NCBI GenBank assembly: GCA_963765495.1
Contig: CAVXWP010000007.1
Coordinates: 512,001-576,000, forward strand
From: Blastocatellia bacterium
GTDB lineage: Bacteria; Acidobacteriota; Blastocatellia; UBA7656
Length of the DNA: 64,000 nt
Direction: 5' to 3'
In this document: in pieces, positions 35,003 to 53,667 of the stretch
Numbering within the stretch: the first letter of the stretch is position 1
Layout of the letters: the number at the start of each line of letters is the position of its first letter
Translations under genes and position numbers: made by a program
Notes under the pieces: generated by a model
The model's input: the letters and a program-made list of their open reading frames with translations, nothing else
Database searches by the model: none
What the model was told of the DNA's origin: nothing

Positions 35003-38000
35003 ATGAAACCGCATTCACGCTCGCTTTGGATTGCTTTGTTTCTGGTAGCTTTATTTACAATGGTATCGATGGGCGGAGTTGTTCCCGTACGGGTTAGCGC
35101 TCATGGCCCTCAAGGTCAGTCAACCAAACCAGCGCCGCAAAAGGGCGTCGCACCAAAAGAAGATTCCGATGAAGGGGAAGACCCCGACTTGCCCCGTTTC
35201 GCAAACGGCAAGGTGGATAAAGAGGCTTATATGAGGGCCAGACAGGATAATATAAGCCTGATTCGGGGAGTTGATCTGAACGGCAAATTCGATCCGTCCC
35301 TGCGCGTCAAGGCCATACGCCAACTGGAATTGCAGGCAGCGGCAAATGCGCCTGTAATCACCACGGCGGCGTGGACACAGATCGGCCCGGCTCCTATCCC
35401 CAACGGACAGACACAGACGACGACGACCGCCGTGAGCGGGCGCGTCACGGTTGTGGAGATTGATCCGACAAATTCAAGCCGGCTTTATGTAGGCACGGCT
35501 CAAGGCGGCGTCTATCGCTCGCTTGACGGCGGCACGACATGGGCTGCGATATTCGACGGCGCTCAATCGCTCGCCATCGGCGCGCTTGCGCTTGTTCCTA
35601 CCGACCCGACCACGCTTTATGTAGGCACGGGCGAAGCAAACGGCTCGTGCGACAGCTTTGCCGGTGTCGGGTTGTATCGCATAGATACTGTGACGACCAC
35701 TCCTGTGCTTGTAGGCCCGATAAACCCGGTTCGCAACTACAACGATGCCGGGGGCAATCCGCAGAGCGTACCCGCTTTCAACGGGCGCAGCATAAGCAAA
35801 ATACTTGTAAACCCGACCGATCCCGGCTCGCTTCTTGTCGGGACCGCTGGCGGAGTCATAGGAATCGGTTGCGACTCACCGCTCGGCGGCGCGGTTCCGC
35901 CTCTTTCAACGAGAGGGCTTTATCGGCTGGCGAATGCGGACGGCGACCCCGCAGGAGTAACGGTTGAGAAGATACCTGTTGCCACGACCGCGGTTGCGGG
36001 CGGATGTTTCGATCTTCCCTGCACGGCAAATCGCAGCGTAAACGATATGGTCTATGATCCGGCGGACACCAATATCCTGACGCTGTGGCTGAACGGAATA
36101 AACGTATCGGGTGACGGAGGCATATGGCGTTCGACAAACGCGCAGTCCGCCTCTCCGACCTTCACGCAGGTCTTTACCACGACGGCCACAAGCACCTCGA
36201 ACGGCAGAGGGGTCTTTGCCATTTACAAGCAGGGCGCAAACCCTACGGTCATTTATGAAGGAAGCGGGGAAGCAAGCACGGGCGGAACGCTCTGCAACAG
36301 TTCCGCAAACCAGGGGGCGCTCAGAAGATCGACCGACGGCGGCGCTACGTGGTCTGCAAAGCTTCCGGGCGGCGGCGGTTTCTGCGGCGGGCAATGTTTC
36401 TATAATCTCGGCCTCGCGGTAGTTCCCGGCGCGACCACCGCTACGGATACGGTTTATGTGGCAGGAAACGTGCAGAGCGCAAACTGCGCGAAGCTGCTGG
36501 GGAAATCGCTTGACGGCGCTGCGACCGTTTTTGCCAATCTCGATAACGGTCTGCACGCCGATACCCATGTGGTTAAGATCGATCCCAACAACTCTTCGGT
36601 TATCTATCACGGCAATGACGGCGGGATATACAAATCAACAAACGCCGCAGCTTCGTGGACCAGCCTCAACAACACAGGCTTTCACGCCACGCAGTTTCAG
36701 AGCATAGCCACGCATCCTACTGATCAGTTTTATACCATCGGCGGCACGCAGGATAACGGGACGGAATTTCTACAGCCGACCAATATCTGGACGCGCGCCG
36801 ATGCCGGGGACGGCGGCTTTGCCATGATAGATCAGAACGCGGTCAATACGACCAATGTGACGATGTATCACACCTACTTCAATCAGGCCGGAACTCAGAT
36901 AGGCTATGCCCGCGCTACGACAGCGGGCGGAGCCTGGTCGTTTCTCGGCTGCTCAGGGTCGGGAACCACAAGAGGCATCAGTTGCACAAACACGGTGAAT
37001 TTCTATGCGCCGACGGCTCTTGGGCCGGGAAGCCCGAACGTAGTCTATCTCGGCACCGACCGCCTCTATCGCTCTACCGATACGGGCAACAACAACACAA
37101 TAGTCAGCCAGGCGCCGCTTGTGAGCGGCGTGCCCATAAGCAGCATAGCCATTTCGCCGTTGAGCGACCTTGTGCGCGTAGTGGGTCTCAACGACGGCTC
37201 GCTTTTTTACACGACTACCGGGTCATCTACGCTGACAAATTTAGACCCGTCAAACATGATCCCGAATAAATATGTGGGGCGAATAAAAGTCGATCCGAAT
37301 AACAGCAACACGGTTTATATCGCGCTCGCTGGCTACACGGGCGCTACTACGCCGGACAACTCGCATGTGTGGAAGGTGACAAACCTGAGCACGACCCCTG
37401 TGATAACCGCGATCAACGGATCGGGACCTGACGCCCTGCCCGATGTTCCTGTGAACGGCTTTGTGGTTGACCCGGTCAACTCGAACGTGCTCTATGCCGG
37501 GACCGACATAGGTGTTTACAGATCAACGGACGCGGGGGCCAACTGGATGCCGTTTGGCACGGGGCTTCCGATAGTCGCTGTTTTCGATATGGAAATAGCG
37601 CAGAAGGGGACCACCTCTGAAATCCTGCGAATCGCAACGCACGGTCGCGGAATGTGGGAGATTTCGCTTGCCCCGACGCTTGCCAAAGTAGTCGATATAA
37701 ATGCCAGCCGCTTTGATGACGGGCGCGTGCTCGTAGAGTGGCAGACCGGCAGCGAGGTGAACAACCTCGGCTTCAATATTTATCGCGAGCAGGACGGCCA
37801 GCGCATTCGCGTGACTCCGCAACTCGTCGCAGGCGCGGCGCTCGTAACAGGTGCGGGAAGGTCACTGCTTTCAGGCCATACATATCAGTGGGCGGATATC
37901 CCGCCCGCAAATGCCAGAAAGGTGAGCTACTGGCTTGAAGACGTAGACCTCAACGGCCAGAGTTCGTGGACCGGGCCTATTGAGATAAAGCTCGCTCACG

Positions 38001-40159
38001 GCAAGAAATCCGACATAGATCTCAGGTCGGTGACGTTGGGCAGCCTCGGTATGCATCAGGCGCAGGTGACGGGCGGGGTCGGAACCGAGATAGCAGAGCG
38101 AGCGGCGGAAGTTCGAACGCTCACCCCGGCAGCTCAGGCTTCTCAGACCGCGATTGCTTCCGCCCCAGCCGTAAAGATCGGTGTGAAGCAGGAGGGCTGG
38201 TACAGGGTTAGTATGGCCGAACTCCTCGCGGCGGGGCTCAACCCGAATGCCGATCCTCGCAATCTGAAGGTTTTTGTAGACGGTCAGGAAATCCCAATCG
38301 TAGTCAAGAACGCGCCGTCCGGCTCGCCCGATGCGGTTGAATTTTACGCAGTAGGTCTGGATTCCGTCTCATCCAATATCCGCACCTACTGGGTAGTGGC
38401 GACAGATACCCCGGGGCTGAGGATCAGTCCTCAATCGGGCAAGGCCGGGACAATTACGGCGGGAAGCTTCCCCTACACCGTTCAAAGAAAGGATCGGACC
38501 ATATACTTTTCGGCGCTAAAAAACGGCGAGAAAGAGAATTTCTTTGGCCCGGTCGTTTCATCATCACCAATAGACCAGACGCTCACGCTCACGCATGTAG
38601 CTCAATCCGACGCTTCGGCCACGCTCGAAGTAGCTATGCAGGGCGTGACCCGACTGGCGCACGCGGTTACGATAACGCTCAACGGTGAGGCTGTGGGAAC
38701 GCTGAATTTTGCCGGGCAGGCTGCCGGGGTTGCCCGCCTCTCGATTCCGCAATCGAAACTGAAGGAAGGAAGCAACATCGTTCGGTTGACGGGCGGAAGT
38801 TCCGGCCAGGACGTGAGCCTCATCGATTCGATCAGCATCACCTATCAGCACAGCTATATCGCCGATAGCGATGCGCTTCAGCTCACGGCTGAGGCCGGTC
38901 GCCAGATTACTATAGACGGGTTCACGAGCGCATCGGTACGGGTCGTGGATGCCACCAACCCCGATTCCGTTCAGGAACTGGCCGCAACGGTCAAATCCGG
39001 CAAGTCGGGATTTTCCGTCACGGCCACTGCTCAAGGGTCGGGGGATCGCACTCTTCTGGCCTTTGGCGATTCGCAGGTAAGGCATCCGGTCTCGATTGTT
39101 TACAACCAGCCCTCGAACTGGCGGCAGTCAACTACAAGCGCTGACCTGATTATCATCACACGTCAGGATTTCATGACGAGCGTGCAGCCGCTTGTCAGCG
39201 CAAGACAGAATCAGGGGCTTTCTGTGGCTGTCGTCGATGTCGAGGACATCTATGATGAATTCAGCTTTGGCCATAAATCGCCGCAGGCGCTCAAGGATTT
39301 CATACTCTACGCGAGAAATTCCTGGGCAACGCCCGCTCGTTTTGCGCTGCTTGTCGGCGACGGCAGCTTCGATCCGAAGGACTATCTCGGCTATGGAAAT
39401 GCGGACCTCGTGCCGAGCAAACTCATAGACTCTCAGTTTGTAGAGACTGCCTCCGACGACTGGTATGCCGACTCAAACGAAGACGGTCTGGCGGAAATAG
39501 CCGTGGGACGTCTGCCGGTTCGCACCGCTCAGGAGGCCGCCGTTATGATTTCAAAGATCGTAGCCTTTGACCGCCAGGGAGTCACAAATTCGGTGTTGCT
39601 GGTCTCCGACAGCAACGACGGCTATAACTTTGAAGCCGCCAGCGCGCAGGTTCGAGGCATCATACCCGCCGGGATCAATGTGGAGCAGATTGACAGAGGG
39701 CAGGTGGGAACCCTTACGGCAAAGAGCCAGTTGATCGACGCAATAGCGCGAGGACAGAAGATAGTCAATTACACGGGGCACGGAAACGCGACCATTTGGA
39801 GAGATAATCTTCTGACGGCAGCAGACGCCAGAAAGCTGACCAACCGCACCCATCTGCCGCTGTTTGTTACGATGTCGTGTTTGAACGGGTATTATCAAGA
39901 CCCGGTGCTCGACTCGCTGGCCGAATCGCTGATGAAGGCCGAACGCGGCGGAGCCGTTGCCGTGTGGGCTTCATCGGGACTGACCGAGCCAAGCGGTCAG
40001 GTGGTTATGGATCGTCAGGTATTTCAGTTTATCCTGAACTCCACCGGCTCAGGGATGCGTCTGGGAGAAGCCGTTCTTGGAGCGAAGGCTTCCGTATATG
40101 ACGGCGATCTTCGCCGTACGTGGATACTTTTCGGCGACCCGACGATGAGGCTAAGATAA
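35003..40159 (+). CDS. Secreted BNR/Asp-box beta-propeller passenger + Ig-like + C25 peptidase domain protein (C25-1)
   Basis: Signal peptide; repeated RSxDGGxTW Asp boxes, GGTQDNG, ATHGRG; C-terminal IYDEFSFG, GRLP, YTGHG, MSCLNG, LFGDP. Confidence 0.9.
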   Translation: MKPHSRSLWIALFLVALFTMVSMGGVVPVRVSAHGPQGQSTKPAPQKGVAPKEDSDEGEDPDLPRFANGKVDKEAYMRARQDNISLIRGVDLNGKFDPSLRVKAIRQLELQAAANAPVITTAAWTQIGPAPIPNGQTQTTTTAVSGRVTVVEIDPTNSSRLYVGTAQGGVYRSLDGGTTWAAIFDGAQSLAIGALALVPTDPTTLYVGTGEANGSCDSFAGVGLYRIDTVTTTPVLVGPINPVRNYNDAGGNPQSVPAFNGRSISKILVNPTDPGSLLVGTAGGVIGIGCDSPLGGAVPPLSTRGLYRLANADGDPAGVTVEKIPVATTAVAGGCFDLPCTANRSVNDMVYDPADTNILTLWLNGINVSGDGGIWRSTNAQSASPTFTQVFTTTATSTSNGRGVFAIYKQGANPTVIYEGSGEASTGGTLCNSSANQGALRRSTDGGATWSAKLPGGGGFCGGQCFYNLGLAVVPGATTATDTVYVAGNVQSANCAKLLGKSLDGAATVFANLDNGLHADTHVVKIDPNNSSVIYHGNDGGIYKSTNAAASWTSLNNTGFHATQFQSIATHPTDQFYTIGGTQDNGTEFLQPTNIWTRADAGDGGFAMIDQNAVNTTNVTMYHTYFNQAGTQIGYARATTAGGAWSFLGCSGSGTTRGISCTNTVNFYAPTALGPGSPNVVYLGTDRLYRSTDTGNNNTIVSQAPLVSGVPISSIAISPLSDLVRVVGLNDGSLFYTTTGSSTLTNLDPSNMIPNKYVGRIKVDPNNSNTVYIALAGYTGATTPDNSHVWKVTNLSTTPVITAINGSGPDALPDVPVNGFVVDPVNSNVLYAGTDIGVYRSTDAGANWMPFGTGLPIVAVFDMEIAQKGTTSEILRIATHGRGMWEISLAPTLAKVVDINASRFDDGRVLVEWQTGSEVNNLGFNIYREQDGQRIRVTPQLVAGAALVTGAGRSLLSGHTYQWADIPPANARKVSYWLEDVDLNGQSSWTGPIEIKLAHGKKSDIDLRSVTLGSLGMHQAQVTGGVGTEIAERAAEVRTLTPAAQASQTAIASAPAVKIGVKQEGWYRVSMAELLAAGLNPNADPRNLKVFVDGQEIPIVVKNAPSGSPDAVEFYAVGLDSVSSNIRTYWVVATDTPGLRISPQSGKAGTITAGSFPYTVQRKDRTIYFSALKNGEKENFFGPVVSSSPIDQTLTLTHVAQSDASATLEVAMQGVTRLAHAVTITLNGEAVGTLNFAGQAAGVARLSIPQSKLKEGSNIVRLTGGSSGQDVSLIDSISITYQHSYIADSDALQLTAEAGRQITIDGFTSASVRVVDATNPDSVQELAATVKSGKSGFSVTATAQGSGDRTLLAFGDSQVRHPVSIVYNQPSNWRQSTTSADLIIITRQDFMTSVQPLVSARQNQGLSVAVVDVEDIYDEFSFGHKSPQALKDFILYARNSWATPARFALLVGDGSFDPKDYLGYGNADLVPSKLIDSQFVETASDDWYADSNEDGLAEIAVGRLPVRTAQEAAVMISKIVAFDRQGVTNSVLLVSDSNDGYNFEAASAQVRGIIPAGINVEQIDRGQVGTLTAKSQLIDAIARGQKIVNYTGHGNATIWRDNLLTAADARKLTNRTHLPLFVTMSCLNGYYQDPVLDSLAESLMKAERGGAVAVWASSGLTEPSGQVVMDRQVFQFILNSTGSGMRLGEAVLGAKASVYDGDLRRTWILFGDPTMRLR

Positions 40160-40193
40160 GGTCTCCGCTCATATCCGGCGGTTAAACGATCTG

Positions 40194-40235
40194 GGGCTGA
40201 AAATGCGGTTTTAGCTGCATTTTCAGCCCTTTTTT
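40194..40235 (+). terminator. Rho-independent terminator
   Basis: GGGCTGAAAATGC ... GCATTTTCAGCCC followed by a T run. Confidence 0.85.
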
Positions 40236-40331
40236 ATTCGAGTCGAAAACCCTTGAGGGGCTTTCTATCTATGCCGCCTCAAAAAGAGCCCAATAAAAAG
40301 CTTTCAACAGGGAAAACCGGGGATTTTCTGC

Positions 40332-40360
40332 TTGACTTAAATTTACGACAAGCATAAATT
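40332..40360 (+). promoter_or_regulatory. Sigma70-type promoter upstream of C25 gene 2
   Basis: TTGACT-17 nt-TAAATT, about 410 nt before the ATG. Confidence 0.55.
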
Positions 40361-40771
40361 AGCCTCCATCAAGGGGAAGCAGTAACCAATTCAGTATGAG
40401 TATTCAAGAGCGAACAAGGGTCTTCTTGCTGAGGGCGGCCTTTCAGCCTCAGCTTACGGGTTGAAGACTAAGACACACCTTATTTTTAGTCGGTCATGAA
40501 AGACCGGCTTGAAGTTTGATTCAACTTAACAATCTGTTTTTGTAAGGCAGCTTTGCGCTGCGCCTGATACGTCAGTTTCTCGTTTTGAGGCTCCGGCTTG
40601 GCATCGGTTTAGCCCGACAGCCACAGGCAACACGCCGGGTGATGATCAGCCGCTGGCCGCGATGTAGAAACTGTATATCGGCGAGTTGGGTGGTGGCGTT
40701 CCTTATCAAATGGGATAGGAGCTAACTGCTAATGAATAACATATCGAGAAGAGATTAATGGAGAGTCCCCA

Positions 40772-43700
40772 ATGAAGATATCAAAGAAGAATTTGACACT
40801 GAAAAAATCGAGTGGACGGCTGATCGTCGCCACAACATTGATGTTTTTCTTATCAGTCATATTTTATCCAGTGACGCAGGGCCAGAATGGGTCGCAGGGC
40901 CAGAATGTAATCGAGCGCGCAACTGCGACGCTTGATGGGTCCGCGCTTGAAAGTGGAAAGAAGGCCCAGGCCTCAAGGGGACTGGGTGAAAGCGGCGCTA
41001 AAGGCTCGGGGGTCTCCGGCTCCGGCTCCGGCTCAGCCACTAAGCAGTCTCCAAACGTGGGCGAAGTTGCCAGTAATTACACCTTTGCCACAAATACCAC
41101 CGCGTCGCTTACCGATATGAGCACCGGCACAACTCAATTGCTCGGGCCAAACATTGACGACACCGCTTCGGCGCTCACCAATATCGGGTTTGACTTCTAT
41201 TTTCAGGGGGCGCGCTTCAGCCAGTTCTCGATCAATGAGAACGGCGTGTTTCGTCTAGGCGCAACCGCGCAGAGTTCTACTCCCTACAAGCCGCTTGCGC
41301 AGGCCGGTATTCCGATCATCACCGCTTACGGCGCAGACCAGCGGACGCACGCCGGAGACGGCAAAGTGCATTTCAAGGTGACCGGCTCGGCCCCGAACCG
41401 CGTGCTGACGGTTGAATGGCTCAACAACCAGGCCAATTTCAACACGGGCGGGACGGCAGACCTCACCTATCAGGTCAGACTCTATGAAACGACCGGCGTG
41501 ATCGAACTCGTCTACGGCAGCATGACGATGAGCGCTGCCGGGGCGGCCGATGCCAATTCAAGAGACCCGAACATCGGGTTTTCTTCGAGCAACACGGTCG
41601 GGACGGTCGGCTCTGTGACCGCCGCGCAAAGCGGCACACCCGCGCCGACATTCGACGGGACATCGGCCACAGCGGTGGCGAATCTTTATACGGCTGGCGC
41701 GATCACGGTGCTTACCTCTGCTACTAACGGCTCAAGGCGGATTTTTAGTTTCACGCCACCGACACCGACCGCGCCGACCGGCTTAAATTTCACCGGCGTC
41801 GCCCCGACCGCGATGATGCTCAACTGGACGGATTCACCAAATGAAACCATCTATGCCATATACCGCTCAACCGATGGCACAAACTTCACCTTCGACGGCA
41901 CGGCGGCACAGAACGCGACCTCATACGCGGCGTCGGGTTTGAATCCCAGCACGACTTATTTCTGGCGCGTGTTTGCCGTATCCGAAGGCGCGTTGAGCAC
42001 GGCGCTATCGGGCAGCCAGATGACATCGCCTGCCGGAATCGTTATGTCAACGGCTGCCGGCGGCAATTGGAGCAACCCGGCGACGTGGGTCGGGGGCAGC
42101 GTTCCTATCGCCAGCGACAATGTGACGATAGTTGACGGCGCGACCGTAACGATTGACACGGCGGCCGTAGCTTTGAACGTCACCGTAGGGCAGGGATCAT
42201 CCGGCATCTTGCAGTACGAGACTACGACGGCCCGCACGCTCACCGTTGGGCAGTCAGTGGTGGTATCGGCAGGAGGCACTTTCCAATCAGCCGCGACCGG
42301 CACCGTTACCACGCACGTTCTTTCGGTCGGAACGGATTTGACAAACAACGGCAATATTGATTTCAGCACCAACAGCAACACGGCGGGCGCGGGCATCACC
42401 TTTACCGGCGCAAACGACGCATCCTTTACCCTCGGCGCTGCCAGCACTACCGACTTCAAACAGACCGCTGGCGTCACCTTAAATAAGGGAACCAACAACA
42501 CGCCGGTTCTGACCTTCCTGCCCGGCGGCACAGTCACCGTATTGGGCGCTAATGCGGTCGGTTTCCTCACTATCACAAACGGCACGTTCAAGCTGTCGGG
42601 TGCCAATACATTCAGTAACCCGGTCTTTAACGCGGCGGCTTATTCGATTCCCGCGACGGGCGGATTCTGGATGAACAATGCCAACGCCACCGTCGTCGGG
42701 CTGAACGGCACGTCCACCCTTACGGGTATGTTCAGAATGTCGCAAGGCACGTTCAACATAGGCATCGCCACAGGCAACTCGATGGGCTTTGCTACGGGCA
42801 GTAACATTCTTGTGGAAGGGGGCGCAATAAACGCCACAGGCCGATTCGCCGTGTCGGCTTCAACCAGTGTCATTACCTACAATCAATCCGGCGGTACGAT
42901 CACTGTTTGCACCATCGGTAATGCCTCGACCACTCTCGCCAATTTCGACCTGGGAACCGCCATCGGGTCTACCGTTAACATAACCGGCGGCACGATCATC
43001 GTTCAACTCGCGAACACGGGAGGGTCCGGCCCGCGCGATTATCGCCATCAAGCCGGTACGACCGGGATTTTGAGCGTGACGGCGGGGACATTGCAACTGG
43101 GCAATGCCGCGTCAGGCGCAGCAAAGGCGTTCAACATCGCCGGTGTGCTTCCGAACCTTGTACTGAATAATGCCTCGGCCAATCATTCGGCGACCTTCCT
43201 GGCCCCGGTAGCCTTCAACAACATCTCGCTCGACATCACAATCAACACGGGCAATACGCTGAACATCGGCAACAATGTGTTTCTGATGAACGGGGCTACG
43301 TTAACCAATAATGGAACCTTGACCGCGAACGGAGCGAGTTCCAATTTTGTCTGGTTTCTGACGACGGCTCCGCAGATGTATACCGGCAGCGGCACGGTCA
43401 CAGCGCCGGTGACCAATTTCGCCATACAGTCAGACATGGGGCTGACCATTGACCCGGCCTCGTCCAACATCGTGGTCGGCGCAATCCGATTGTTCAGCGG
43501 CAATCTGATCAATTCCAACAAGATCACGCTAGGCAACGGCGGCGCTACCACAGGCATAGTGCAAATCGGCAATACGACTACGCCGACCGCAGCCGGAACT
43601 TTCGATGTGCCGTTTACCTTCAACCTCGGCACGGGCGGCGAAACGGTATCCTACTTGAGGACGACCTTGACCAGGACTACAGGGCCGGAGATCAATCCGA

Positions 43701-46700
43701 CCCGCACGCTCACGAGCATGACCTATGACGACAACGATGTTACCCATAGTCTGACCATCGCGGGCGGCGATCTCACGCTTGCAAGCGCCGCGACGGCGCT
43801 GACTTTGACAAACGGGCATATCCTCACCGGGGCCAATACTTTGATCCTGTCTTCCGGCACGGCCACTGTGACGCGAACAAACGGTTTCGTAGACGGCAAT
43901 TTCAGAAAGACCTACGCGGCGGCGGTCAACAAGACGTTCGAGGTGGGAACGGCCAACGGATTTTCGCCCGTAGCGGTCAACGCAACGGCCGGGACGTTCC
44001 CGGCTACGTTTACCGTAAAGGCGGTGCAGGGGCCGCAGCCCAATATCCTGTCGCCTCAACTGGCGCTGCAAAGATACTGGGTCCTCGACACCGCAGGAAT
44101 TACGACCGCCGATTTGACGTTCAACTATCTCGACCCGACCGACATCCCTGTCTCGGCTACCGAGGCGAATTTCGTCATCTTCAAGTATGACGGCGCGTTT
44201 ACAATGCCCGGCGGCACGGTCAACACCGCGGCCAATACGGCAAACATTACCGGCGTCATGTCGTTTTCAGACTGGACGCTTGCCGAACCGACCGCGCCTA
44301 CCGCTATCCAACTGGCGAGCTTCAGGGCCAGCAGCTATGACGCGGAGACGACCGGCGGCGGCGCTTCCGCTTCGAAGCGGAAATCGGGCGTCCTCATCGA
44401 ATGGAGAACCGGATTTGAGGTCGCCAACCTCGGCTTTAACATCTACAGACAGGAAGGCGAGAACCGCGTGCGGGTCAACCCCGATCTGATAGCGGGCTCG
44501 GCGCTGTTTGTAGGCGGCTCGACCGCATTGACCGCCGGACGCAGCTACAATTGGCGCGATCTCGGGTCGCGTGCCGGAGCAAACACCGATTACTGGCTCG
44601 AAGAGATCGACCTCAACGGCCAGAGCATCTGGCACGGTCCTGTAAGACCGACGCCTTCATCGGGCAGGCAGTTGTCATCGCTCGCCTCAGGCGACTCGAA
44701 GACGATGAGCGAGGTAAGCACCGAAACGGCCCGCTCGGGCGTGACCCGCCCCGTCGAGCAGTTCGCGCAATCGAGTAAATTCACAACCGCCCAGAAGAAG
44801 GCGCAACTTACCCTCGCGGGACAATCTGCGGTTAAAATAAGCGTGAGGCAGGCGGGCTATTACAGAGTCGGCCAGCCTGAATTGATCGCGGCCGGAATCA
44901 ACCCTTCGGTCGATCCGCGCCTGTTGCAGTTGAGCGTCAACGGGCAGGAAGTGCCGATCAGAGTGAGCGGAGAAAGTGACGGTCACTTCGATGCCGAGGA
45001 CGCGGTCGAGTTTTACGGCACGGGCGTAAACACGGCCTCAACGGATGCCCGCGTTTACTGGCTTGTGGCGGGGGCTCAGGCGGGCCGCCGCATTCAACCC
45101 GTGAGCGACGAGGGGACGGTCGAGTCGGGCAGCGGCTTTGCCTATACGGTTGAGCGCAGAGACCGCACGGTCTATTTCTCGGCGCTCAGAAACGGAGAGG
45201 CCGAGAACTTCTTTGGCGCGGTCCTTGCGCGCGATGCCGTGGATCAGACGCTCGCAGTCGAGCATCTGGACGGAGCGGGCGAGCAGGCGACGATTGAGGT
45301 CGCAGTGCAGGGAGTCACGCAGGTTCCGCACCGTGTCGGTGTCGAGATCAACGGCGAGTATGCCGGAGAAATGCTGTTTTACGGGCAAGCGGAAGGCAGA
45401 GGCACGTTTGCCGTATCGCATTCCTCGTTGAAAGAAGGCGATAACACGGTCAGGCTCGAATCGCGCGGCGGCCAAAATGATGTGAGCCTTGTGAATTACA
45501 TCAGGCTCACCTATCAGCACACCTTCATGGCTACGGACAATCTGTTGCGCGTGAATGCTTCGGGCAATCAGGAGGTGAGCATCAATGGATTCAGCACGTC
45601 AGATATTCGAGTGCTTGATGTCACCGACCCCGATAACGTTCAGGAAGTGCAGGGAAGCATAAAACGGGTGAAGGCGACTTATCAGGTGACCGTAGGCGTA
45701 CCGGGCGCGGGGGCGCGAAGTCTGCTTGCGATTGCCGAAGATCGGTTCGACGCTTCGGCGGCGGTTGTAGCAAATCAGCCTTCGAGCTTGCGGCAGCCGA
45801 AGAATGGAGCCGACCTGCTTATCATTACGCGAGCGGAATTCATCCCCGCCCTCGATCCGCTGGTTGCGCTGCGCCAGAGCCAGAAACTCGCCGTGGCGGT
45901 CATAGATATAGAAGACATCTATGATGAGTTTAGCTTCGGGCAGAAGTCGCCCGAGGCGGTCAGAGATTTCCTTGCCTATACGCGGGCAAGCTGGAAGAGG
46001 AAGCCGCAATATCTGCTCCTGGCAGGAGATTCCAGCTTCGATGCGAAGAATTATCTTGGGCTGGGAGATTACGATCTGGTTCCGTCGAAGCTTCTCGATA
46101 CTGTCTATCTCGAAACGGCGTCGGATGACTGGCTGGCGGATTTTGACGGAGACGGGCTGGCCGATATGGCCGTAGGCCGTTTGCCTTTCCGCTCTGTGGA
46201 TGAGGCGACCAGACTGGTATCAAAGATAGTCGGATATGAGAAGAAGGGAAGCTCGGCCTCGGTGCTGCTTGTAGCCGACCTGCCCGACGGGTACAACTTC
46301 GGGGAAACCAACGATCAGTTGAAGACGCTTGTTCCCGGAAACATTCGCGTTGTGGATGTGCGGCGCGGCGTAGACGATGATGCGACTACGAGGCAAAGGT
46401 TGATTGATGCTATCAACCAGGGTCAGAAGGTAGTCAATTACGTCGGGCATGGTTCGGTGACACTGTGGAGGGGCGACCTTCTGACATCGGATGATGTGAA
46501 TCAGTTAACAAACGCCGACAGATTGCCGTTGTTTGTGACGATGACGTGTCTGAACGGATACTTCCAGGACCCGACGCTTGATTCGTTGGCCGAGACCCTT
46601 TTGAAGGCCGAGCGCGGAGGAGCTATAGCCGTGTGGGCATCAAGCGGAATGACGATACCGGGAGATCAATCGTTGATGGATCGCGAGATGTTTAGAACGT

Positions 46701-46825
46701 TGTTTGGCACACCCGCCGGGCAGCGTCTGGGCGACCTGACGGTTAAAGCAAAGGCGGCGACCGGAGACAAAGACGTTCGGCAAACGTGGATACTGTTTGG
46801 CGATCCAAGCATGAGATTGAAATAA
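40772..46825 (+). CDS. Secreted adhesin-like protein: Fn3 + beta-helix passenger + Ig-like + C25 peptidase domain (C25-2)
   Basis: Fn3 (LNWTD...YAASGLNPSTTYFWRVFA), GNWSNPATW, Thr/Gly/Asn-rich beta-strand repeats; YVGHG, MTCLNG, LFGDP. Confidence 0.9.
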   Translation: MKISKKNLTLKKSSGRLIVATTLMFFLSVIFYPVTQGQNGSQGQNVIERATATLDGSALESGKKAQASRGLGESGAKGSGVSGSGSGSATKQSPNVGEVASNYTFATNTTASLTDMSTGTTQLLGPNIDDTASALTNIGFDFYFQGARFSQFSINENGVFRLGATAQSSTPYKPLAQAGIPIITAYGADQRTHAGDGKVHFKVTGSAPNRVLTVEWLNNQANFNTGGTADLTYQVRLYETTGVIELVYGSMTMSAAGAADANSRDPNIGFSSSNTVGTVGSVTAAQSGTPAPTFDGTSATAVANLYTAGAITVLTSATNGSRRIFSFTPPTPTAPTGLNFTGVAPTAMMLNWTDSPNETIYAIYRSTDGTNFTFDGTAAQNATSYAASGLNPSTTYFWRVFAVSEGALSTALSGSQMTSPAGIVMSTAAGGNWSNPATWVGGSVPIASDNVTIVDGATVTIDTAAVALNVTVGQGSSGILQYETTTARTLTVGQSVVVSAGGTFQSAATGTVTTHVLSVGTDLTNNGNIDFSTNSNTAGAGITFTGANDASFTLGAASTTDFKQTAGVTLNKGTNNTPVLTFLPGGTVTVLGANAVGFLTITNGTFKLSGANTFSNPVFNAAAYSIPATGGFWMNNANATVVGLNGTSTLTGMFRMSQGTFNIGIATGNSMGFATGSNILVEGGAINATGRFAVSASTSVITYNQSGGTITVCTIGNASTTLANFDLGTAIGSTVNITGGTIIVQLANTGGSGPRDYRHQAGTTGILSVTAGTLQLGNAASGAAKAFNIAGVLPNLVLNNASANHSATFLAPVAFNNISLDITINTGNTLNIGNNVFLMNGATLTNNGTLTANGASSNFVWFLTTAPQMYTGSGTVTAPVTNFAIQSDMGLTIDPASSNIVVGAIRLFSGNLINSNKITLGNGGATTGIVQIGNTTTPTAAGTFDVPFTFNLGTGGETVSYLRTTLTRTTGPEINPTRTLTSMTYDDNDVTHSLTIAGGDLTLASAATALTLTNGHILTGANTLILSSGTATVTRTNGFVDGNFRKTYAAAVNKTFEVGTANGFSPVAVNATAGTFPATFTVKAVQGPQPNILSPQLALQRYWVLDTAGITTADLTFNYLDPTDIPVSATEANFVIFKYDGAFTMPGGTVNTAANTANITGVMSFSDWTLAEPTAPTAIQLASFRASSYDAETTGGGASASKRKSGVLIEWRTGFEVANLGFNIYRQEGENRVRVNPDLIAGSALFVGGSTALTAGRSYNWRDLGSRAGANTDYWLEEIDLNGQSIWHGPVRPTPSSGRQLSSLASGDSKTMSEVSTETARSGVTRPVEQFAQSSKFTTAQKKAQLTLAGQSAVKISVRQAGYYRVGQPELIAAGINPSVDPRLLQLSVNGQEVPIRVSGESDGHFDAEDAVEFYGTGVNTASTDARVYWLVAGAQAGRRIQPVSDEGTVESGSGFAYTVERRDRTVYFSALRNGEAENFFGAVLARDAVDQTLAVEHLDGAGEQATIEVAVQGVTQVPHRVGVEINGEYAGEMLFYGQAEGRGTFAVSHSSLKEGDNTVRLESRGGQNDVSLVNYIRLTYQHTFMATDNLLRVNASGNQEVSINGFSTSDIRVLDVTDPDNVQEVQGSIKRVKATYQVTVGVPGAGARSLLAIAEDRFDASAAVVANQPSSLRQPKNGADLLIITRAEFIPALDPLVALRQSQKLAVAVIDIEDIYDEFSFGQKSPEAVRDFLAYTRASWKRKPQYLLLAGDSSFDAKNYLGLGDYDLVPSKLLDTVYLETASDDWLADFDGDGLADMAVGRLPFRSVDEATRLVSKIVGYEKKGSSASVLLVADLPDGYNFGETNDQLKTLVPGNIRVVDVRRGVDDDATTRQRLIDAINQGQKVVNYVGHGSVTLWRGDLLTSDDVNQLTNADRLPLFVTMTCLNGYFQDPTLDSLAETLLKAERGGAIAVWASSGMTIPGDQSLMDREMFRTLFGTPAGQRLGDLTVKAKAATGDKDVRQTWILFGDPSMRLK

Positions 46826-46959: not shown

Positions 46960-47367
46960 TTAATGGGGCTGGATGCCGGAAGGGTTACAGGTCATCTCGA
47001 TGACGGTGTATTGCTTCTTTAGCCTTTCAAGCTCTTTACTCTGCTGATCCAGAATCTCCAAATAATCGGCGGGTGGATTGCCCCAGCATCCCGCGAGCCT
47101 GTAAAAGCGAATCTCTCTGCCGGTCCGGTCAACGAGTTTGCCAGGATCGCATCGCGCTTTCATCTCCGTCAATTTGTCTCGGACGGATATCTGTTTGATC
47201 GCGCCCGTCTCTTTCCCGGGCTTTGCGTCTTCGGTCGAGACGATGTCGGAAAGTTTTATATCAGGCGGAAGACAATCCTGGAGCGACTCCTGATTTTTGT
47301 GGCACGTCGTCATAGGAAGGCTCAACCCGAGCCAGAGCGCGAAACTGAGAGCGGCAAACAATTGCAT
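46960..47367 (-). CDS. Exported hypothetical protein with four spaced Cys in the mature region
   Basis: GGAGG RBS, signal-like N terminus, CLPP, ARC, GCWGNPPADY, MTCNPSG. Confidence 0.7.
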   Translation of the reverse strand: MQLFAALSFALWLGLSLPMTTCHKNQESLQDCLPPDIKLSDIVSTEDAKPGKETGAIKQISVRDKLTEMKARCDPGKLVDRTGREIRFYRLAGCWGNPPADYLEILDQQSKELERLKKQYTVIEMTCNPSGIQPH

Positions 47368-47595: not shown

Positions 47596-47625
47596 TTGAC
47601 GAATGGCACAGGCTGGAAGTAGGAT
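47596..47625 (+). promoter_or_regulatory. Sigma70-type promoter upstream of C25 gene 3
   Basis: TTGACG-18 nt-TAGGAT. Confidence 0.5.
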
Positions 47626-47919
47626 AGCGCCACACCAGTGATTGTTGAGTTGAGGAGGCTTTTTCAAGACCTGTAACCTGGGATTATGCTCTGCTGATTA
47701 CAATACAAAAGCAAATCGCGTCGGTTTTGAAATGCTAAATAAATATCTGTGAGTTTTGCGGGCCGGAAATGCGCTGGTTTTACTTGAATCCATCAGTGGA
47801 AATAGCTCTGATAGGTATAACCGAGGATTTGCTCGGATTGAGCGCGAATCCTTCGAAGAACTGGCGCTGAATCTTCCGGGTTTCGTTAAGGCATAAATAG
47901 CATCAAGAGGAGACATAGA

Positions 47920-50900
47920 ATGAGGGTTTCAATAAAGCGCGCAAGGCATTTGGGAAGTCTGGCAATTATTGTTGTTGGATTGGCAGGCTGGCTGGTTTTG
48001 CCGGGACTTTTAGGCCGGGCTACAACATCCGCTCATATCGGCGAACAGGGGTTGTCAAAGGGAGCACAGGTAGAGGCCGGACTCGACCCCCAACGCCAAA
48101 AAGCGCTTGAGAACCTCTATGCTCAATTTACGGCAGGCGCACCTTTTTCAAGAGAGGAATCCAATATCCTGACCAGATTTGGCGCAGGTGAGAAGATATA
48201 CGATCTTGAGGCCGATATAGTAATCTCTCGCGCGCTTTACGCTTATTACATTCTGGGCAAGGCATTGACGCGTGATCAGCAGGTTTTGCTCGACAGGTAC
48301 AGTTCAGCCGTTGCGCACCGAAACACCGATATAGCCGACCTGAAAGAACAGCTACAGCAGCGGCGCAAGGCTGCCGCCGCAAATGCGCCGCCTCGGACGA
48401 CACCCGAAGTTGCGCCCGCAAATGACACCTGCGCAGGCGCTCAGGTTGTTCCCGCCGCCGGGCCGTTTCCTTTTCTGACTACAACCGTCGATATCACCGA
48501 CGCGACAGGCACAAATGAACCGGCGCTCCCTACGTGCACGTCACCGGCATCGCCTCCCGATCCGACCGTTGTCACGCGAGGCGTCTGGTACACCTTTACT
48601 CCGTCAGCGACGGCAACCTACACCCTGGCCACCTGCGCGGAAGCGCCCACCGCTACGACGGTTGACGATACGGTTATGGCAATCTACACCTCCACGGGAG
48701 GTTGCGCCGGTCCGTTCACTCAGTTGGCGAATGATTCCGGGGATATTGACGGGTGTAACGACGACAGTTGCGTCACTTTACAATCATCATTGCAATCGCA
48801 AATAACGACGCGTCTCAATGCGAGCACTACATATTACATCGTGATCTCGCTTTATGGCTCAGACCCACCAATAACGGGCATGACAAATGTCCAGATGAGA
48901 ATTACCAAAGAGAACCCTCCTGTAAATGACACATGCGCGACAGCGCCTTCGCTATCGCTCAATACGCCTGTCACAGGGTCTTTAATAGCAGCGCAAAATG
49001 ATTATCAACTAAATAATTCAGGTTGTTTTTCAGGCGTAGGGCAGACGCCGTCAACCGCAGCGGGTCGCGATGTGGTCTATTCTTTCACAGCGCCTTCGGC
49101 GGGTACCTACTCATTCAGAGTTACAAAATATAACGGCAGCGAGAGCGATCTGGTTATGTATGCCGCAAGCACCTGTCCGGCGGCAACGCCCGGAACCCCT
49201 GTAACCGTTAGCGGTTGTCTGGGCGCATCCAATCGGTTCGTTTCCGATTTCTTTGGAGGCCCATTCTCTTCGGAGGAAATTACTTGTCTTTCGCTTACTG
49301 CGAGCCAGCAGATCTTCATATTCGTAGACCAGGATAGTTTGAGCACGGGCAGCACTTTTACCATCGAAGCGAACCAGTGTGTTCGCGAAACCGAGGCGAA
49401 TAATACTCCTGCCACAGCCAATCCTTTCGTATGCGGTATAGAAGGAAGTATTACTCCGGCAGGAGATGCGGATTTTTATTCTCTGGGGACATTTACGTCC
49501 GGCTCGCGTCTGTTTGCGCTGGTTGATGGCGTGGCCGCCAACGGGGACGATTTCGATCTGCGCGTGACCACAACCACCGACACACTTGAGTACGACGATA
49601 TAGATTCAACCGAAGCCTTTGGCGATAACTCGGGAACCGTTGCGGGTACGCCTCTAACGAGCGCGGCAACGTTTCTGAGGGTGAGCTATTTCGATCCCTC
49701 AACGGCGAGCGAGCCATATCGTGTGTACGCGGCGGTGCAACCTCCAATCGCTTCGGCTACTTCGGAAACCGAGCCGAACAACACAATAGGAACTGCCAAT
49801 TCGGCTGCGAATAACTATTTCACTGGAACGTTGAGCGGCCCGTCGCCATCGACCGATATAGACATCTATAGCTTCACGGGGCAGGCCGGAGACCTGGTAT
49901 TCATCGGTCTGGATGGCGACCCGCTTCGAAACAACACTCCGATCAATGCCAGGCTGGCATTGCTGGACTCGTCCGGCAACTTAATACTTGAAGTCAACAA
50001 CAACAATTCTTTTTCAAATACGACTTCGGGTGCGGGCAGCCTGACATCAACGACACCAAATTCGCCTGCCGAGTCTATCGTATTTCGGGTGATGACAGGA
50101 GGCACTTATTACGCGAGAGTAGCAATTGATTCATTCGCCACCGGAGCGGTTGCAAGCGGAGATTATCTGCTTTCGATAGCAAAGAATTGTACGACAGGCC
50201 CTTCGGTCAGCAATTCAATATCAGGGACGATCTCTTATTGCATCGACAACTCAAAGAAAGTCCCCAACGCCACCGTCCAGACTACCAGCGGTTCCCCTTC
50301 CGCTTCCACTACTACTAACGCCTCCGGCTTCTATCAACTCGATAACCTCGGCACTGGCCCTTACACCGTTGCTCCTTCCAAAACCGGTGCCGTCTCCGGC
50401 ATCTCTGCTCAGGATATCGGTATCCTCCGCCGCCTCGCCGCTGGCATCGATACCCCCACTCCCTGTCAATCCATCGCTGGCGATACAGATAACAACGGCT
50501 CGCTCGGCGCCCAGGACATCGGCTTCCTTCGAAGATTTGTCGCTCAACTTACTACCACTGGCATCACTGGCTCCTGGAAATTCTCTCCCGCCTCTAGGAG
50601 TTATCCCTCGCTTGTTTCAAATCAAACAAACCAGGATTACGATGCCTTGCTGATCGGAGATGTTGACGGCAACTGGACCCCCGCTGCTCCTGATCCTGCT
50701 TCATTTCAGAAGAGTCAGGCTCCTTCGGCCACTAACCTTGCCCTCTCTTTGCCCAGTGTCGTTGCTCCTCCCGGTTCTACTGATGTCTCTATCCCGGTCA
50801 TGGTTAACGGCACTCTCACAAACGGCGATTTCGTTTTGGGCTACACAATCGAGATCAGTTTCGATCCCAGCGTGCTGGTTCCACATTCGCCCTCATTCAA

Positions 50901-53667
50901 CACGACAGGGACGGTCTCATCGACCGGGGTCGTCACAGAGAACACGGGTGTGTCGGGGAGGCTCCGACTTGTGGTCGATTTCCAGAATCCGCTGATATTC
51001 ACAGGGCAGCAGACGCTGATAATATTGAGGTTCGATGTGGTAGGGACACAGGGACAGATGAGCGGGCTCAACTGGTTCTTCACGGAATTTGGGAGCGGCC
51101 CACCTGCCGTCACCACCACGACTACAAACGGCAACTTCACCGTCACAAGCCCCACTGCCGTAAAAGTCGATGCCTTCAAGGCCACGGGCTTTGACAAGGG
51201 CGTATATCTCCAGTGGCAGACCGGGTTTGAATCTACTAACCTCGGCTTCAACATCTATCGCCAGCAGGCGGGCAAACTCTCTCTTGTTACGCCTGAAATA
51301 TTGGCCGGGTCGGCGCTTTTGACAGGTGACACGCCCTTGCTTGCCGGGCGGAAATATTCGTGGTGGGATAATTCACCCGATAGTAAACAGGACGCGCTCT
51401 ATTATCTGGAAGACATTGACCTCAACGGCACAAGGAGCCTGCACGGGCCGATAGTTGCAACCAGAGCATCAGGCAATCCGCCTGCTGGCTCTCGGGCCGA
51501 GTTGTTGAGCCGGATGGGCAGAGGCAAGGCTACAATCAGCGACTACGTCGCTTCCTCCTCCCCTGGCAGCGCCCAACTGGCAACCGTTTCCTCAAAGAAA
51601 GGATTACAAAACTCCAGGCGAGAGACAGTGCCTGTTGATCTGGCGACCTCCTCTGCCATAAAGATGTGGATAGGCAATAGCGGGCTCTATCGCCTCACTC
51701 AGCCGCAACTGCTGAGCGCCGGCCTCGATTCCGGGATAGATCCGCGACTCTTGCAGATGTATGTCGACGGGCAGGAGGTTCCAATCCTTGTCACTGGCCA
51801 GGAGGACGGAAGATTTGATGCCACGGACACAGTGGAATTCTACGCTTCGGCAATCGACAGCCCGTTCACCTCGAAGCGGGTCTACTGGCTTGTGGCAGGG
51901 ACAGTGGCGGGAAGACGGATAACAAAAGTGACGAGTCCCGGGAAGGGGCAGAGCAACGCTAGTTTTACCTCGACCCTGGAGCGACGAGACAAGACGATCT
52001 ACTTTTCGAGTTTGAGGAACGGGGATGAGGAGAACTTCTTTGGGCCGGTCATAGCCTCGCAGGAAGTCGATCAGTCGATAGATGTGAAAGATATGGCAGC
52101 GGGAGGAGGAACTGGGGCAGTGCTTGAAGTGGGATTACAGGGAGTAAGTGCGGTCAACCATCGAGTAAAAGTGAGGTTGAACGGGACGGAGTTGGGAGAG
52201 GTAGATTACAGTGGGCAGGGAGCAGGAGTAGGGAGATTCACACTCTCAAGCGGGCAACTGGTGGAAGGAAGAAACGACATCAAGATGGAGGGGGTGGGAA
52301 CAGGAGGAGATGTGAGCCTGGCCGAGTATGTGAGAGTGAGCTATGAGAGGAGGTACAAGGCGGAAGGAGATGAGTTGAGATTCCGAGCAGAGGGGGGCCA
52401 GGAGGTAAAGATAGGAGGGTTCACAAGCGAACGGATACGAGTATTTGATGTAACGGAGGAAGGGAATGTAGTGGAGATAGGAGGAGCGATAGAAGAGAGC
52501 GGGAACGGGTATGAGATAGGGATCAAGGTAGGAGGAGCAGGAGAGAGAGAGATGATGGCGATAGAGGAAGGGGAGGTGAGAGAGGTAGGAGAGATGAGAA
52601 AGAACGAGGCGTCGAAGCTGAGAGCGACGAGCCAGGGAGCGGACCTGTTGATAATCACGACGGGAGAGATGGGAGGAAGTCTGGAAGGGTTGAAGGCGCT
52701 GAGACAGAGTCAGGGGATGGCGGTAGCGATAGTGAAGGTGGAAGACATCTATGACGAGTTCAGCCAGGGAGAGAAGACGCCGTATGCGATAAGAGAATTT
52801 CTGATATATGCGAAGAGGAACTGGAAGAGGAAGCCGGGATATGTGTTGATGGGAGGGGATGCGAGTTACGACCCGAAGAATTATCTGGGAGCGGGGGAAT
52901 GGGATCTGGTGCCGACGAAGTTGGTGGACACGGCGTATCTGGAGACGGCCTCAGATGAATGGATGGTGGACGAGGATGGAGACGGGATAGGAGAGATGGC
53001 GATAGGGCGACTGCCGATAAGGAGCGAGGAAGAAGGGATGAGGATGGTAGGGAAGATAATGAGTTATGAGAGAGGAGTATCGAGGAGGAGTGTGTTATTG
53101 GTATCGGATGCGAATGATGGATACAACTTTGAGCAGGCGAACGAAGAGTTGAAGGGGATGATACCGAAGGGGACGAGGATAGAAGAGGTAAAGAGGGGGC
53201 AGATGAGCGAGGAGGAAGCGAGGGCGAGGGTGATAGGAGGGATAAACGAAGGGCAGGCGATAGTGAGTTATGCAGGGCACGGGTCGGTGGATATATGGAG
53301 AGGAGAGATATTGAGGAGCGAGGATGGAGAGATAATGAGGAATGGTAATCAGTTGAGTGTATTTCTGATGATGACGTGTTTGAACGGATATTTTGAGGAT
53401 CCGATGTTGGAGAGTTTGGGAGAGGCGATGATGAAGGCGGAGAGGGGAGGAGCGGTAGCGGTATGGGGGTCGAGCGGGATGTGTGAAGCGGGAGAGCAGG
53501 CGGCAGTGAGCAAGGAGATGATGAGGGAGCTAAACAGTGTGGAGGGGTTGACGAAGAAGAAGGTGACGATAGGAGAAGCGGCGAGGAGGGCGAAGGGGAG
53601 GATAGGAGATGTGGATGTAAGGAGGACGTACGTGTTGTTGGGAGACCCGACTATGCGCCTCAGATAA
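47920..53667 (+). CDS. Secreted protein: PxNDTC and ETExNN (PPC-like) repeats + dockerin-like + cohesin-like + Ig-like + C25 peptidase domain (C25-3)
   Basis: GAGGAG RBS; PANDTC/PVNDTC, ETEANN/ETEPNN; GDTDNNGSLGAQD; ISFDPSVL; YAGHG, MTCLNG, LLGDP. Confidence 0.9.
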   Translation: MRVSIKRARHLGSLAIIVVGLAGWLVLPGLLGRATTSAHIGEQGLSKGAQVEAGLDPQRQKALENLYAQFTAGAPFSREESNILTRFGAGEKIYDLEADIVISRALYAYYILGKALTRDQQVLLDRYSSAVAHRNTDIADLKEQLQQRRKAAAANAPPRTTPEVAPANDTCAGAQVVPAAGPFPFLTTTVDITDATGTNEPALPTCTSPASPPDPTVVTRGVWYTFTPSATATYTLATCAEAPTATTVDDTVMAIYTSTGGCAGPFTQLANDSGDIDGCNDDSCVTLQSSLQSQITTRLNASTTYYIVISLYGSDPPITGMTNVQMRITKENPPVNDTCATAPSLSLNTPVTGSLIAAQNDYQLNNSGCFSGVGQTPSTAAGRDVVYSFTAPSAGTYSFRVTKYNGSESDLVMYAASTCPAATPGTPVTVSGCLGASNRFVSDFFGGPFSSEEITCLSLTASQQIFIFVDQDSLSTGSTFTIEANQCVRETEANNTPATANPFVCGIEGSITPAGDADFYSLGTFTSGSRLFALVDGVAANGDDFDLRVTTTTDTLEYDDIDSTEAFGDNSGTVAGTPLTSAATFLRVSYFDPSTASEPYRVYAAVQPPIASATSETEPNNTIGTANSAANNYFTGTLSGPSPSTDIDIYSFTGQAGDLVFIGLDGDPLRNNTPINARLALLDSSGNLILEVNNNNSFSNTTSGAGSLTSTTPNSPAESIVFRVMTGGTYYARVAIDSFATGAVASGDYLLSIAKNCTTGPSVSNSISGTISYCIDNSKKVPNATVQTTSGSPSASTTTNASGFYQLDNLGTGPYTVAPSKTGAVSGISAQDIGILRRLAAGIDTPTPCQSIAGDTDNNGSLGAQDIGFLRRFVAQLTTTGITGSWKFSPASRSYPSLVSNQTNQDYDALLIGDVDGNWTPAAPDPASFQKSQAPSATNLALSLPSVVAPPGSTDVSIPVMVNGTLTNGDFVLGYTIEISFDPSVLVPHSPSFNTTGTVSSTGVVTENTGVSGRLRLVVDFQNPLIFTGQQTLIILRFDVVGTQGQMSGLNWFFTEFGSGPPAVTTTTTNGNFTVTSPTAVKVDAFKATGFDKGVYLQWQTGFESTNLGFNIYRQQAGKLSLVTPEILAGSALLTGDTPLLAGRKYSWWDNSPDSKQDALYYLEDIDLNGTRSLHGPIVATRASGNPPAGSRAELLSRMGRGKATISDYVASSSPGSAQLATVSSKKGLQNSRRETVPVDLATSSAIKMWIGNSGLYRLTQPQLLSAGLDSGIDPRLLQMYVDGQEVPILVTGQEDGRFDATDTVEFYASAIDSPFTSKRVYWLVAGTVAGRRITKVTSPGKGQSNASFTSTLERRDKTIYFSSLRNGDEENFFGPVIASQEVDQSIDVKDMAAGGGTGAVLEVGLQGVSAVNHRVKVRLNGTELGEVDYSGQGAGVGRFTLSSGQLVEGRNDIKMEGVGTGGDVSLAEYVRVSYERRYKAEGDELRFRAEGGQEVKIGGFTSERIRVFDVTEEGNVVEIGGAIEESGNGYEIGIKVGGAGEREMMAIEEGEVREVGEMRKNEASKLRATSQGADLLIITTGEMGGSLEGLKALRQSQGMAVAIVKVEDIYDEFSQGEKTPYAIREFLIYAKRNWKRKPGYVLMGGDASYDPKNYLGAGEWDLVPTKLVDTAYLETASDEWMVDEDGDGIGEMAIGRLPIRSEEEGMRMVGKIMSYERGVSRRSVLLVSDANDGYNFEQANEELKGMIPKGTRIEEVKRGQMSEEEARARVIGGINEGQAIVSYAGHGSVDIWRGEILRSEDGEIMRNGNQLSVFLMMTCLNGYFEDPMLESLGEAMMKAERGGAVAVWGSSGMCEAGEQAAVSKEMMRELNSVEGLTKKKVTIGEAARRAKGRIGDVDVRRTYVLLGDPTMRLR

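Follow-up and report, generated by a model that had tools for sequence, protein, structure and literature searches.

Three giant proteins of a Blastocatellia bacterium join variable N-terminal parts to a constant PorU-like C25 module: candidates for self-processing

Introduction

PorU, a peptidase of family C25, is the sortase in Bacteroidota's type IX secretion system (T9SS), where it cleaves cargo proteins and links them to A-LPS; it is the Gram-negative sortase that has been described, and it is tied to that system. Gingipains carry their adhesins at the C-terminal side. Hedgehog proteins use an intein-like chemistry, with cholesterol as the acceptor.

PorU orthologs are marked by a conserved arginine, Arg722, located 32 residues after the catalytic Cys (PMC4560394). 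The PorU cut sites of P. gingivalis have the form X/(GSA)(VLI) and include EPT/ATE (PMC4560394), and the site in Prevotella intermedia is PT/GI (PMC11969387). The active site is covered by a prodomain loop in pro-RgpB (PMC4357240) and by a hairpin in latent PorU dimers (PMC10202324). The MARTX cysteine protease domain (family C80, clan CD) cuts its own giant chain in cis, just upstream of itself (PMC4357240), and the C-terminal Hedgehog domain releases the passenger N-terminal to it by cleavage and adds an anchor in a single turnover (bioRxiv 10.1101/2021.09.01.458638).

Here we describe three genes in a 64,000-nucleotide stretch of a Blastocatellia genome (the window). An earlier inspection of the window had predicted an array of giant secreted proteins in which swappable passengers precede a constant C25 module, and had proposed that this module releases its own passenger or attaches it to a surface glycan.

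Results

Architecture of the three genes

All three giant open reading frames were present, each on the forward strand. Their features are as follows.

35003..40159, +: gene A, 1718 aa; Asp-box/Vps10-like propeller passenger (aa 1-890), constant module (aa 891-1718)
37673..37987, +: gene A PT junction motif (37673-37684) and Fn3/Ig domain; Lx[AST]G loop at 37865-37876
38168..40156, +: gene A PorU-like body; catalytic His 39779-39781, Cys 39878-39880
40193..40230, +: terminator-like hairpin after gene A; 17 pairs and a T run, from a consensus scan only
40772..46825, +: gene B, 2017 aa; fn3 and G8-like/beta-rich passenger (aa 1-1175), constant module (aa 1176-2017)
44297..44650, +: gene B PT junction motif (44297-44308) and Fn3/Ig domain; loop LTAG at 44528-44539, predicted over the catalytic cleft
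44828..46822, +: gene B PorU-like body; catalytic His 46448-46450, Cys 46547-46549
47920..53667, +: gene C, 1915 aa; passenger with PPC repeats, carboxypeptidase-regulatory-like, dockerin-like (by eye) and cohesin domains (aa 1-1077), module (aa 1078-1915)
51151..51459, +: gene C PT junction motif (51151-51162) and Fn3/Ig domain
51655..53664, +: gene C PorU-like body; catalytic His 53278-53280, Cys 53377-53379

The N termini of A, B and C resemble Sec signal peptides by eye. Each pairwise BLASTP comparison yielded one long match (41-47% identity), beginning at aa 890, 1175 and 1077 of A, B and C, respectively, and running to the last residue; the modules are 828, 842 and 838 aa long. Upstream of the module, the same comparisons gave nothing better than E 0.24, consistent with the predicted arrangement of unrelated N-terminal halves and collinear C-terminal halves. 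The His-Cys dyad was retained in all three proteins (H1593/C1626 in A, H1893/C1926 in B and H1787/C1820 in C) and, as anticipated, nothing follows the C25 domain, the Pfam match to PF01364 extending to the penultimate residue. The passenger labels held only in part: Pfam supported Asp-box/BNR repeats in A (with matches below the curated cut-offs), fn3 in B, and PPC and cohesin domains in C, while the beta-helix of B and the dockerin of C, both read by eye, had no Pfam match. The constant part is larger than the C25 domain alone, comprising the PT motif, the Ig domain and the PorU-like body.

The three genes are probably not one operon, because of their spacing, the hairpin after gene A, and an opposite-strand gene between B and C; on these grounds the single-operon reading was dropped. 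Promoter and terminator counts across the window showed no excess over shuffled sequence. Between B and C, 46960-47367 (-) encodes a 135-aa secreted-looking protein with four Cys and no match in Pfam or NCBIfam, homologs of which adjoin module genes at two other loci (L030 and L036). The body of gene C (window approximately 51630-53667) has a G skew of 0.48, compared with 0.03 in A and 0.14 in B, and encodes a Glu/Gly/Met-rich protein; it is 99.5% identical to C1:311400-314861 of the same genome. Elsewhere in the window, 26724-27353 (-) encodes a 209-aa protein with TIR_2 and TPR domains.

A fixed junction between passenger and module

Mean pairwise identity among seven paralogs, measured in 25-residue bins, jumped from 0.13-0.21 to 0.46-0.57 at the bin that begins with the PT motif. 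Homology therefore starts at a fixed PT-(A/L)-(V/I/A) junction rather than declining gradually, and this junction, together with the differing N-terminal parts, bears out the idea of swappable passengers on a constant module. Gene C and its paralog at C7:414567 share a cohesin-side block of 91-100% DNA identity that ends two codons before the PT motif; past that point, identity is 68-82% across the Ig domain and 40-69% beyond, which places the end of one exchange at the junction. Between gene C and C1:311124, the block and module are 99.5% identical and the sequences differ further upstream, so that other domain borders are sites of exchange as well.

Among 304 passenger-bearing modules, the junction residues were P in 271 and T or S in 300 (253 and 291, respectively, in a cruder alignment register), while the residue after PT was A in only 201 and L or E in 55. 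Proteins with two Ig copies had the Pro in 11 of 20 first copies and none of the 20 second copies, of which 18 kept T or S, and passenger-less proteins had it in register in 2 of 17 (counted by eye); these counts are not independent, as 13 of the 17 passenger-less forms belong to one family (f3) and the double-Ig proteins are also kin. The junction Pro tracks the passenger boundary.

At the level of sequence, the PT/AV junction resembles the PorU cut sites reported (PMC11969387; PMC4560394). In a Bacteroidota homolog, the motif reads LLPV, with Pro after the presumed bond, so that a cut at this position is unlikely there. The Pro-Thr pair may also be just a domain cap.

Structure of the module and predicted docking

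In an AlphaFold2 model of residues 1156-2017 of B (pLDDT 92.6, pTM 0.91), the PT motif is followed by a Fn3/Ig domain of about 105 aa, a linker and the PorU-like body, which contains several beta-sandwich domains; the C-terminal domains of PorU are absent. The body (model residues 181-862) aligned to PorU 27-788 (6ZA2; Z 20.6, rmsd 6.2, 556 residues aligned), and PorU was its best Foldseek match (E 5e-29). The predicted PorU-like build was thus borne out, N-terminal and middle domains included. The catalytic domain alone fitted RgpB best (Z 42.5, rmsd 1.9, 311 aligned). At the position of the PorU marker Arg722, the modules have G (280), A (53), S (17) or T (4), and R in none of 354, although two Bacteroidota PorUs processed in the same way show R. 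The Ig domain folds as a generic Fn3/Ig sandwich (best Z 9.6, to 2r2c, rmsd 2.5, 93 aligned, with many near ties), and its Foldseek matches were antibody-type domains only. Its identification as a T9SS C-terminal domain (CTD) was considered and dropped, as none of the CTD families matched it by profile and no CTD was among the fold matches listed.

When the Ig domain and body were predicted as a complex, the score was 0.91, compared with 0.02 for the best of three controls; the mark applied to this score is reached by 116 of 157 solved pairs and by 2 of 215 mismatched pairs, and a pass was favoured here, as the chains are halves of one protein in one shared alignment. The runs had at least 82% of contacts in common, with a partner pLDDT of at least 78. 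The confident interface joins Ig residues 59, 65, 82-105 and 124-129 to the body, including His738, Cys771 and residues 684, 780-781 and 805. The PT motif (model residues 21-24) lay outside the confident interface, and the stretch preceding it had a pLDDT below 50. Ig residues 98-101 form a conserved Lx[AST]G loop (L in 86%, A/S/T in 98% and G in 98% of 292), whose length in fused modules exceeds that in cargo-type Ig domains. The Ig domain is predicted to dock over the catalytic cleft by means of this loop, not the PT motif, and the loop could be either a latency loop or a scissile site. In the Fn3 topology, these loops and the first strand's N terminus lie at the same pole, so that the PT motif would come near the cleft. 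Coevolution analysis (mean-field DCA of 304 rows with Neff 248, a shallow alignment) gave a few Ig-body pairs that fit the docking (A63-T627, z 6.9; G59-A628, 6.4; A100-P779, 5.0) among many that do not, and did not place the PT motif.

This predicted docking bears on a rival explanation, which we consider somewhat unlikely, namely that the module is a zymogen. The Ig domain would be an inhibitory prodomain that replaces the gingipain propeptide. Once activated, the enzyme would cleave other proteins at the surface, with the N-terminal half serving as a targeting, stalk or partner domain, an arrangement that reverses the order of a gingipain. In the predicted complex, the conserved loop lies over His and Cys much as described for the RgpB prodomain loop (PMC4357240) and the hairpin of the latent PorU dimer (PMC10202324); further, the catalytic domain fits RgpB best, the PorU Arg is missing, passenger-less forms exist, and the Ig domain occupies the place of Propeptide_C25 in stand-alone enzymes. 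However, a zymogen leaves unexplained (i) why separate cargo proteins terminate in this same Ig domain, (ii) why the Pro tracks the passenger boundary, and (iii) why there are up to 27 copies per genome, which here sit nearly all behind different N-terminal parts. Self-processing, the reading we prefer, is taken up again in the Discussion.

Copies in the genome and spread of the family

The host genome (7.3 Mb, 97.9% complete) contains 11 C25 matches, and all 11 belong to the module; nine copies are intact and two are split by frameshifts. The broken genes lie at C1:146598-156821 and C1:608934-about 613800. Almost every copy sits behind a different N-terminal part, the passengers elsewhere in the genome including FG-GAP/beta-helix, a nuclease with a lamin-tail domain, an SBBP propeller and PKD domains. 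All 11 Ig domains of the genome are tied to a C25 module; there is no cargo acting in trans in this genome, the Ig profile matching just the 11 module loci.

The search for T9SS components in this genome found none. The CTD profile PF18962 had no match, compared with five in two Bacteroidota control records, and a single PorV query gave no tblastn match. Profiles for SprA, PorP, GldM (PorM) and TIGR04183 (TIGR04189, PF11751, TIGR03517 and TIGR04183, respectively) likewise had no match, but they matched no control genome either. Two secretins are present.

Most of the 78 related loci carry the label Blastocatellia; the others comprise a few further Acidobacteriota, a single Chloroflexia and some contigs with a Clostridia label. 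Within the class, the Ig profile matched 33 of 61 genomes, and of 11 other genomes in the same family, 10 carry between 1 and 27 copies; a whole-module profile matched 121 of 301 genomes of the phylum, many of them partially. At E 1e-30, 5,757 clusters match, the full module not being present in all. Among the best 150 representative proteins, the Ig domain is present in 149, and in 148 the last G/A-D-P lies no more than 12 residues from the C-terminal end; the passengers (at least 60 aa) of the 111 with PT in register form 72 groups at 60% coverage. The catalytic His and Cys are retained by every one of the 354 modules, fused or passenger-less, and the existence of passenger-less copies with an intact dyad indicates that cis action is not the sole role of the family. 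In the ESM Atlas, the best matches (0.86) were unnamed; the nearest named cluster (0.77) bears PF18962 and is a lead only. We found no description of the module family in the literature, of which subscription papers were covered to a limited extent. One related locus, L105:3640-12798 (+), encodes a module protein of 3053 aa with an N terminus that looks, by eye, like the S24/S26 peptidase of the cassettes described below, a possible cassette-module fusion.

Split forms in relatives

In a sample of 12 hand-picked Acidobacteriota genomes, most of which had partial matches, the Ig profile gave 37 matches. Thirty were fetched: 14 end within 30 aa of a stop codon (12 clear, 2 weak), three more lie within 120 residues of the stop, and 13 continue into long frames. 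Many of the cargo-terminal Ig domains open with PTAV/PTSV/PLL-type motifs. All 12 genomes have C25 genes, and the stand-alone C25 enzymes read from such genomes (seven) are without an Ig domain; Propeptide_C25 was above cut-off in four of six, weak in one and absent from one. The genes for cargo and enzyme are neighbours in two of the genomes. One (G044) has a row consisting of a PT-Ig subtilase cargo, PqqD, an S24 peptidase, an intact C25 enzyme, a kinase-like gene and a radical SAM gene; in the other (G311), cargo and enzyme are 2.6 kb apart. No cargo-type Ig domain was found in G163 and G201.

Outside the Acidobacteriota, plasmid pHAU01 of Herpetosiphon aurantiacus encodes a PT-Ig-terminated protein without C25 (E 6e-22), which has about nine relatives, as well as separate C25 genes. 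In a T9SS cargo protein of Bacteroidota, a homologous Ig domain stands directly before the CTD (E 5e-9). Judged by these sequences, the genes of the window appear to be a fused version of this split cargo/enzyme system, with the tag in the place of the propeptide.

Three side observations concern these proteins. The stand-alone C25 enzyme of G311 that neighbours the cargo gene and its ortholog in G323 (L144:6965-9877 (-) and L148:227-3139 (-)) keep the His, whereas the catalytic Cys is replaced by Ser; PT-Ig cargo genes nevertheless persist in both genomes. The Herpetosiphon cargo and C25 enzyme (L110:1471-3300 (-) and L107:18582-21155 (+)) both end in a short tail of the aromatic-x-Pro-x-Val type, perhaps a shared export signal. 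In the double-Ig proteins (P0114, P0117, P0126, P0152-P0175), the first Ig is cargo-type, with a short loop and the PT often kept, and the second is enzyme-type, with a long loop and no Pro; these proteins may be fusion intermediates.

Linked cassette and polysaccharide genes

The array is followed by a cassette of three genes (53784..56328).

53784-54608, +: HprK-related kinase
54709-55188, +: PqqD/RRE domain fused to a twin-Arg-like segment and a Cys-rich tail
55258-56328, +: NTP_transf_5 protein

The cassette recurs beside module genes: at least one of its genes is present at 22 of the 78 related loci (NTP_transf_5 at 18 of these) and none at the other 56, in flanks of up to 10 kb, many of them shorter. 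In this genome, two of four NTP_transf_5 and two of five PqqD matches adjoin a module gene. The cassette also flanks split-form enzymes (L145, L149, L150), and neighbouring cassettes often include radical SAM and S24/S26 genes. A functional link of the cassette to the module genes is something we only infer. The product of 54709-55188 (+), of 159 aa, has a PqqD/RRE domain, a twin-Arg-like hydrophobic segment, an AxA site and a six-Cys tail, and looks like a fusion of chaperone and precursor for an exported Cys-rich peptide; homologs occur at 13 loci, and a third copy in this genome lies in the cassette at C2:232336-234920.

The same cassette underlies a second rival, which we hold to be quite unlikely: C25 would cut or ligate the exported Cys-rich peptide of the PqqD/kinase/NTP_transf_5 genes. 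The recurrence beside modules and split-form enzymes and the share of this genome's NTP_transf_5 and PqqD genes found next to a module both favour it, as does, by analogy, a precedent in which an HprK kinase and an NTP-transferase add a phospho-hexose to a lasso peptide (PMC6993621). It is weakened by the 56 loci without a cassette gene in the flanks examined and by a complete cassette of the window type at C2:232336-234920 of the same genome, which lies in a polysaccharide cluster with no C25 nearby; further, it leaves the passengers unaccounted for. If the modified peptide were the acceptor, this proposal would be compatible with the explanation we prefer, a fusion of cargo, tag and peptidase.

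Past the cassette lie genes for a TPR protein, a Wzy_C O-antigen ligase-like protein, Wza, Wzc and glycosyltransferase-like proteins (window 58149-64000). The flippase/glycosyltransferase-like run continues on C7 to about 591000, and the first genes of the cluster recur beside modules at L005, L033, L080 and L086. This export cluster is relevant to a third rival, in our view also quite unlikely, in which the module is a non-catalytic carrier: as an export, lattice or glycan-binding anchor, it would keep the passenger uncut on the surface, and the dyad would be secondary. An EPS export cluster after the array, several beta-sandwich domains in the body, and the persistence of Cys-to-Ser stand-alone homologs in two genomes are in its favour; the invariance of His and Cys in all 354 fused or passenger-less modules argues against it.

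Discussion

Each gene is best read as a fusion of cargo, a cargo-terminal PT-Ig tag and a PorU-like C25 peptidase that processes its own chain, a reading we hold with about even confidence. The split form, the junction motif and the presence of an intact enzyme with each passenger gene favour self-processing, as do the invariant dyad, the predicted docking of the Ig domain on the body and the alignment of the body to PorU. The proposal that the module is a cis-acting protease that releases its passenger draws on the same points, but it is set back by the finding that the loop, not the junction, is in predicted contact with the catalytic residues; that the PT motif lies outside the confident interface counts against the junction as cut site. 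Further points against self-processing are the missing PorU Arg, the variable residue after PT, the LLPV motif of the Bacteroidota homolog, the passenger-less enzymes with intact dyads, the finding of no cargo-type Ig domain in G163 and G201, and the Ser-for-Cys enzymes of G311 and G323. Of the proposed attachment to a surface glycan, less survives: the Arg is absent from all 354 modules, and PorV and T9SS CTDs were not found.

We postulate the following sequence of events. The PT-Ig domain would serve as a sorting or docking tag on variable cargo, and the protein would first be exported by Sec. The docked Ig domain would keep the enzyme latent and position the precursor, after which the Cys would cut its own chain and free the cargo. 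If there is a cut, our guess favours the T|A(V/I) bond of the junction slightly over all other sites together, followed by the Lx[AST]|G loop and, as the least likely site, the linker after the Ig domain. The acyl-enzyme could then be resolved (i) by water, giving release, or (ii) by a surface amine, giving anchoring as PorU does. Given cleavage, anchoring would be possible, though we lean toward its not occurring; candidate acceptors are the cassette product and the polysaccharide. Self-anchoring by transpeptidation as a whole we rate as unlikely, because the conserved Arg of PorU is absent and the acceptors are candidates only. The fullest version is likewise an unlikely one: a single-turnover cis transpeptidase would link the cargo's new C terminus either to a glycan on the surface or to the cassette's modified peptide, without a type IX system, and would represent, in fused form, a wider PT-Ig/C25 sorting system of Acidobacteriota and Chloroflexota, as yet undescribed, that has its ancestry in common with the attachment step of T9SS.

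If this is true, a PorU-like enzyme with a cargo tag, split or fused by lineage, would extend such sorting to Acidobacteriota and Chloroflexota, would bear on the origin of the T9SS attachment step, and would show by what means nucleases, proteases and adhesin-like domains are deployed by abundant soil Blastocatellia, whose genomes contain as many as 27 of these genes. In the fused form, a single construct together with one point mutant is enough to test the question, and a tag that cleaves or ligates itself could serve as a tool.

Comparison with known systems

The Hedgehog domain is a conceptual analogue of the proposed mechanism, and no homology is expected. The MARTX protease domain shares with the module its place as a clan CD domain within a giant secreted protein; however, it belongs to another family, is activated by a ligand in host cells and performs hydrolysis only, and no toxin domains were seen in the window proteins.

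The modules are members of family C25 (clan CD): PF01364 matches at 252-286 bits, against a cut-off of 23, over its full length, the fold is that of the gingipains, and the dyad is kept. The gingipains RgpB and Kgp (MEROPS C25, clan CD) are similar in the close superposition of the catalytic domains and in having an N-terminal domain over the active site, predicted in our case. They differ in that the window proteins have no Propeptide_C25 (PF08126), although that profile matches stand-alone relatives, and in that the modules are without C-terminal IgSF/adhesin domains or a CTD, contain PorU-type middle domains and have their variable domains at the N-terminal side.

PorU itself has a collinear body, the same His-Cys dyad and cut sites that the junction motif resembles. 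Its profile (NF033707), however, gives the modules 252-272 bits against a cut-off of 420, over positions 2-733 of 1095 only. Unlike PorU, the modules have no domains or CTD after the catalytic domain, show Gly at the Arg722 position, are fused behind cargo and an Ig tag, and are present in 11 copies in this genome, in which the searches found no T9SS parts. The module is therefore a C25 member that is built like PorU but falls outside PorU proper.
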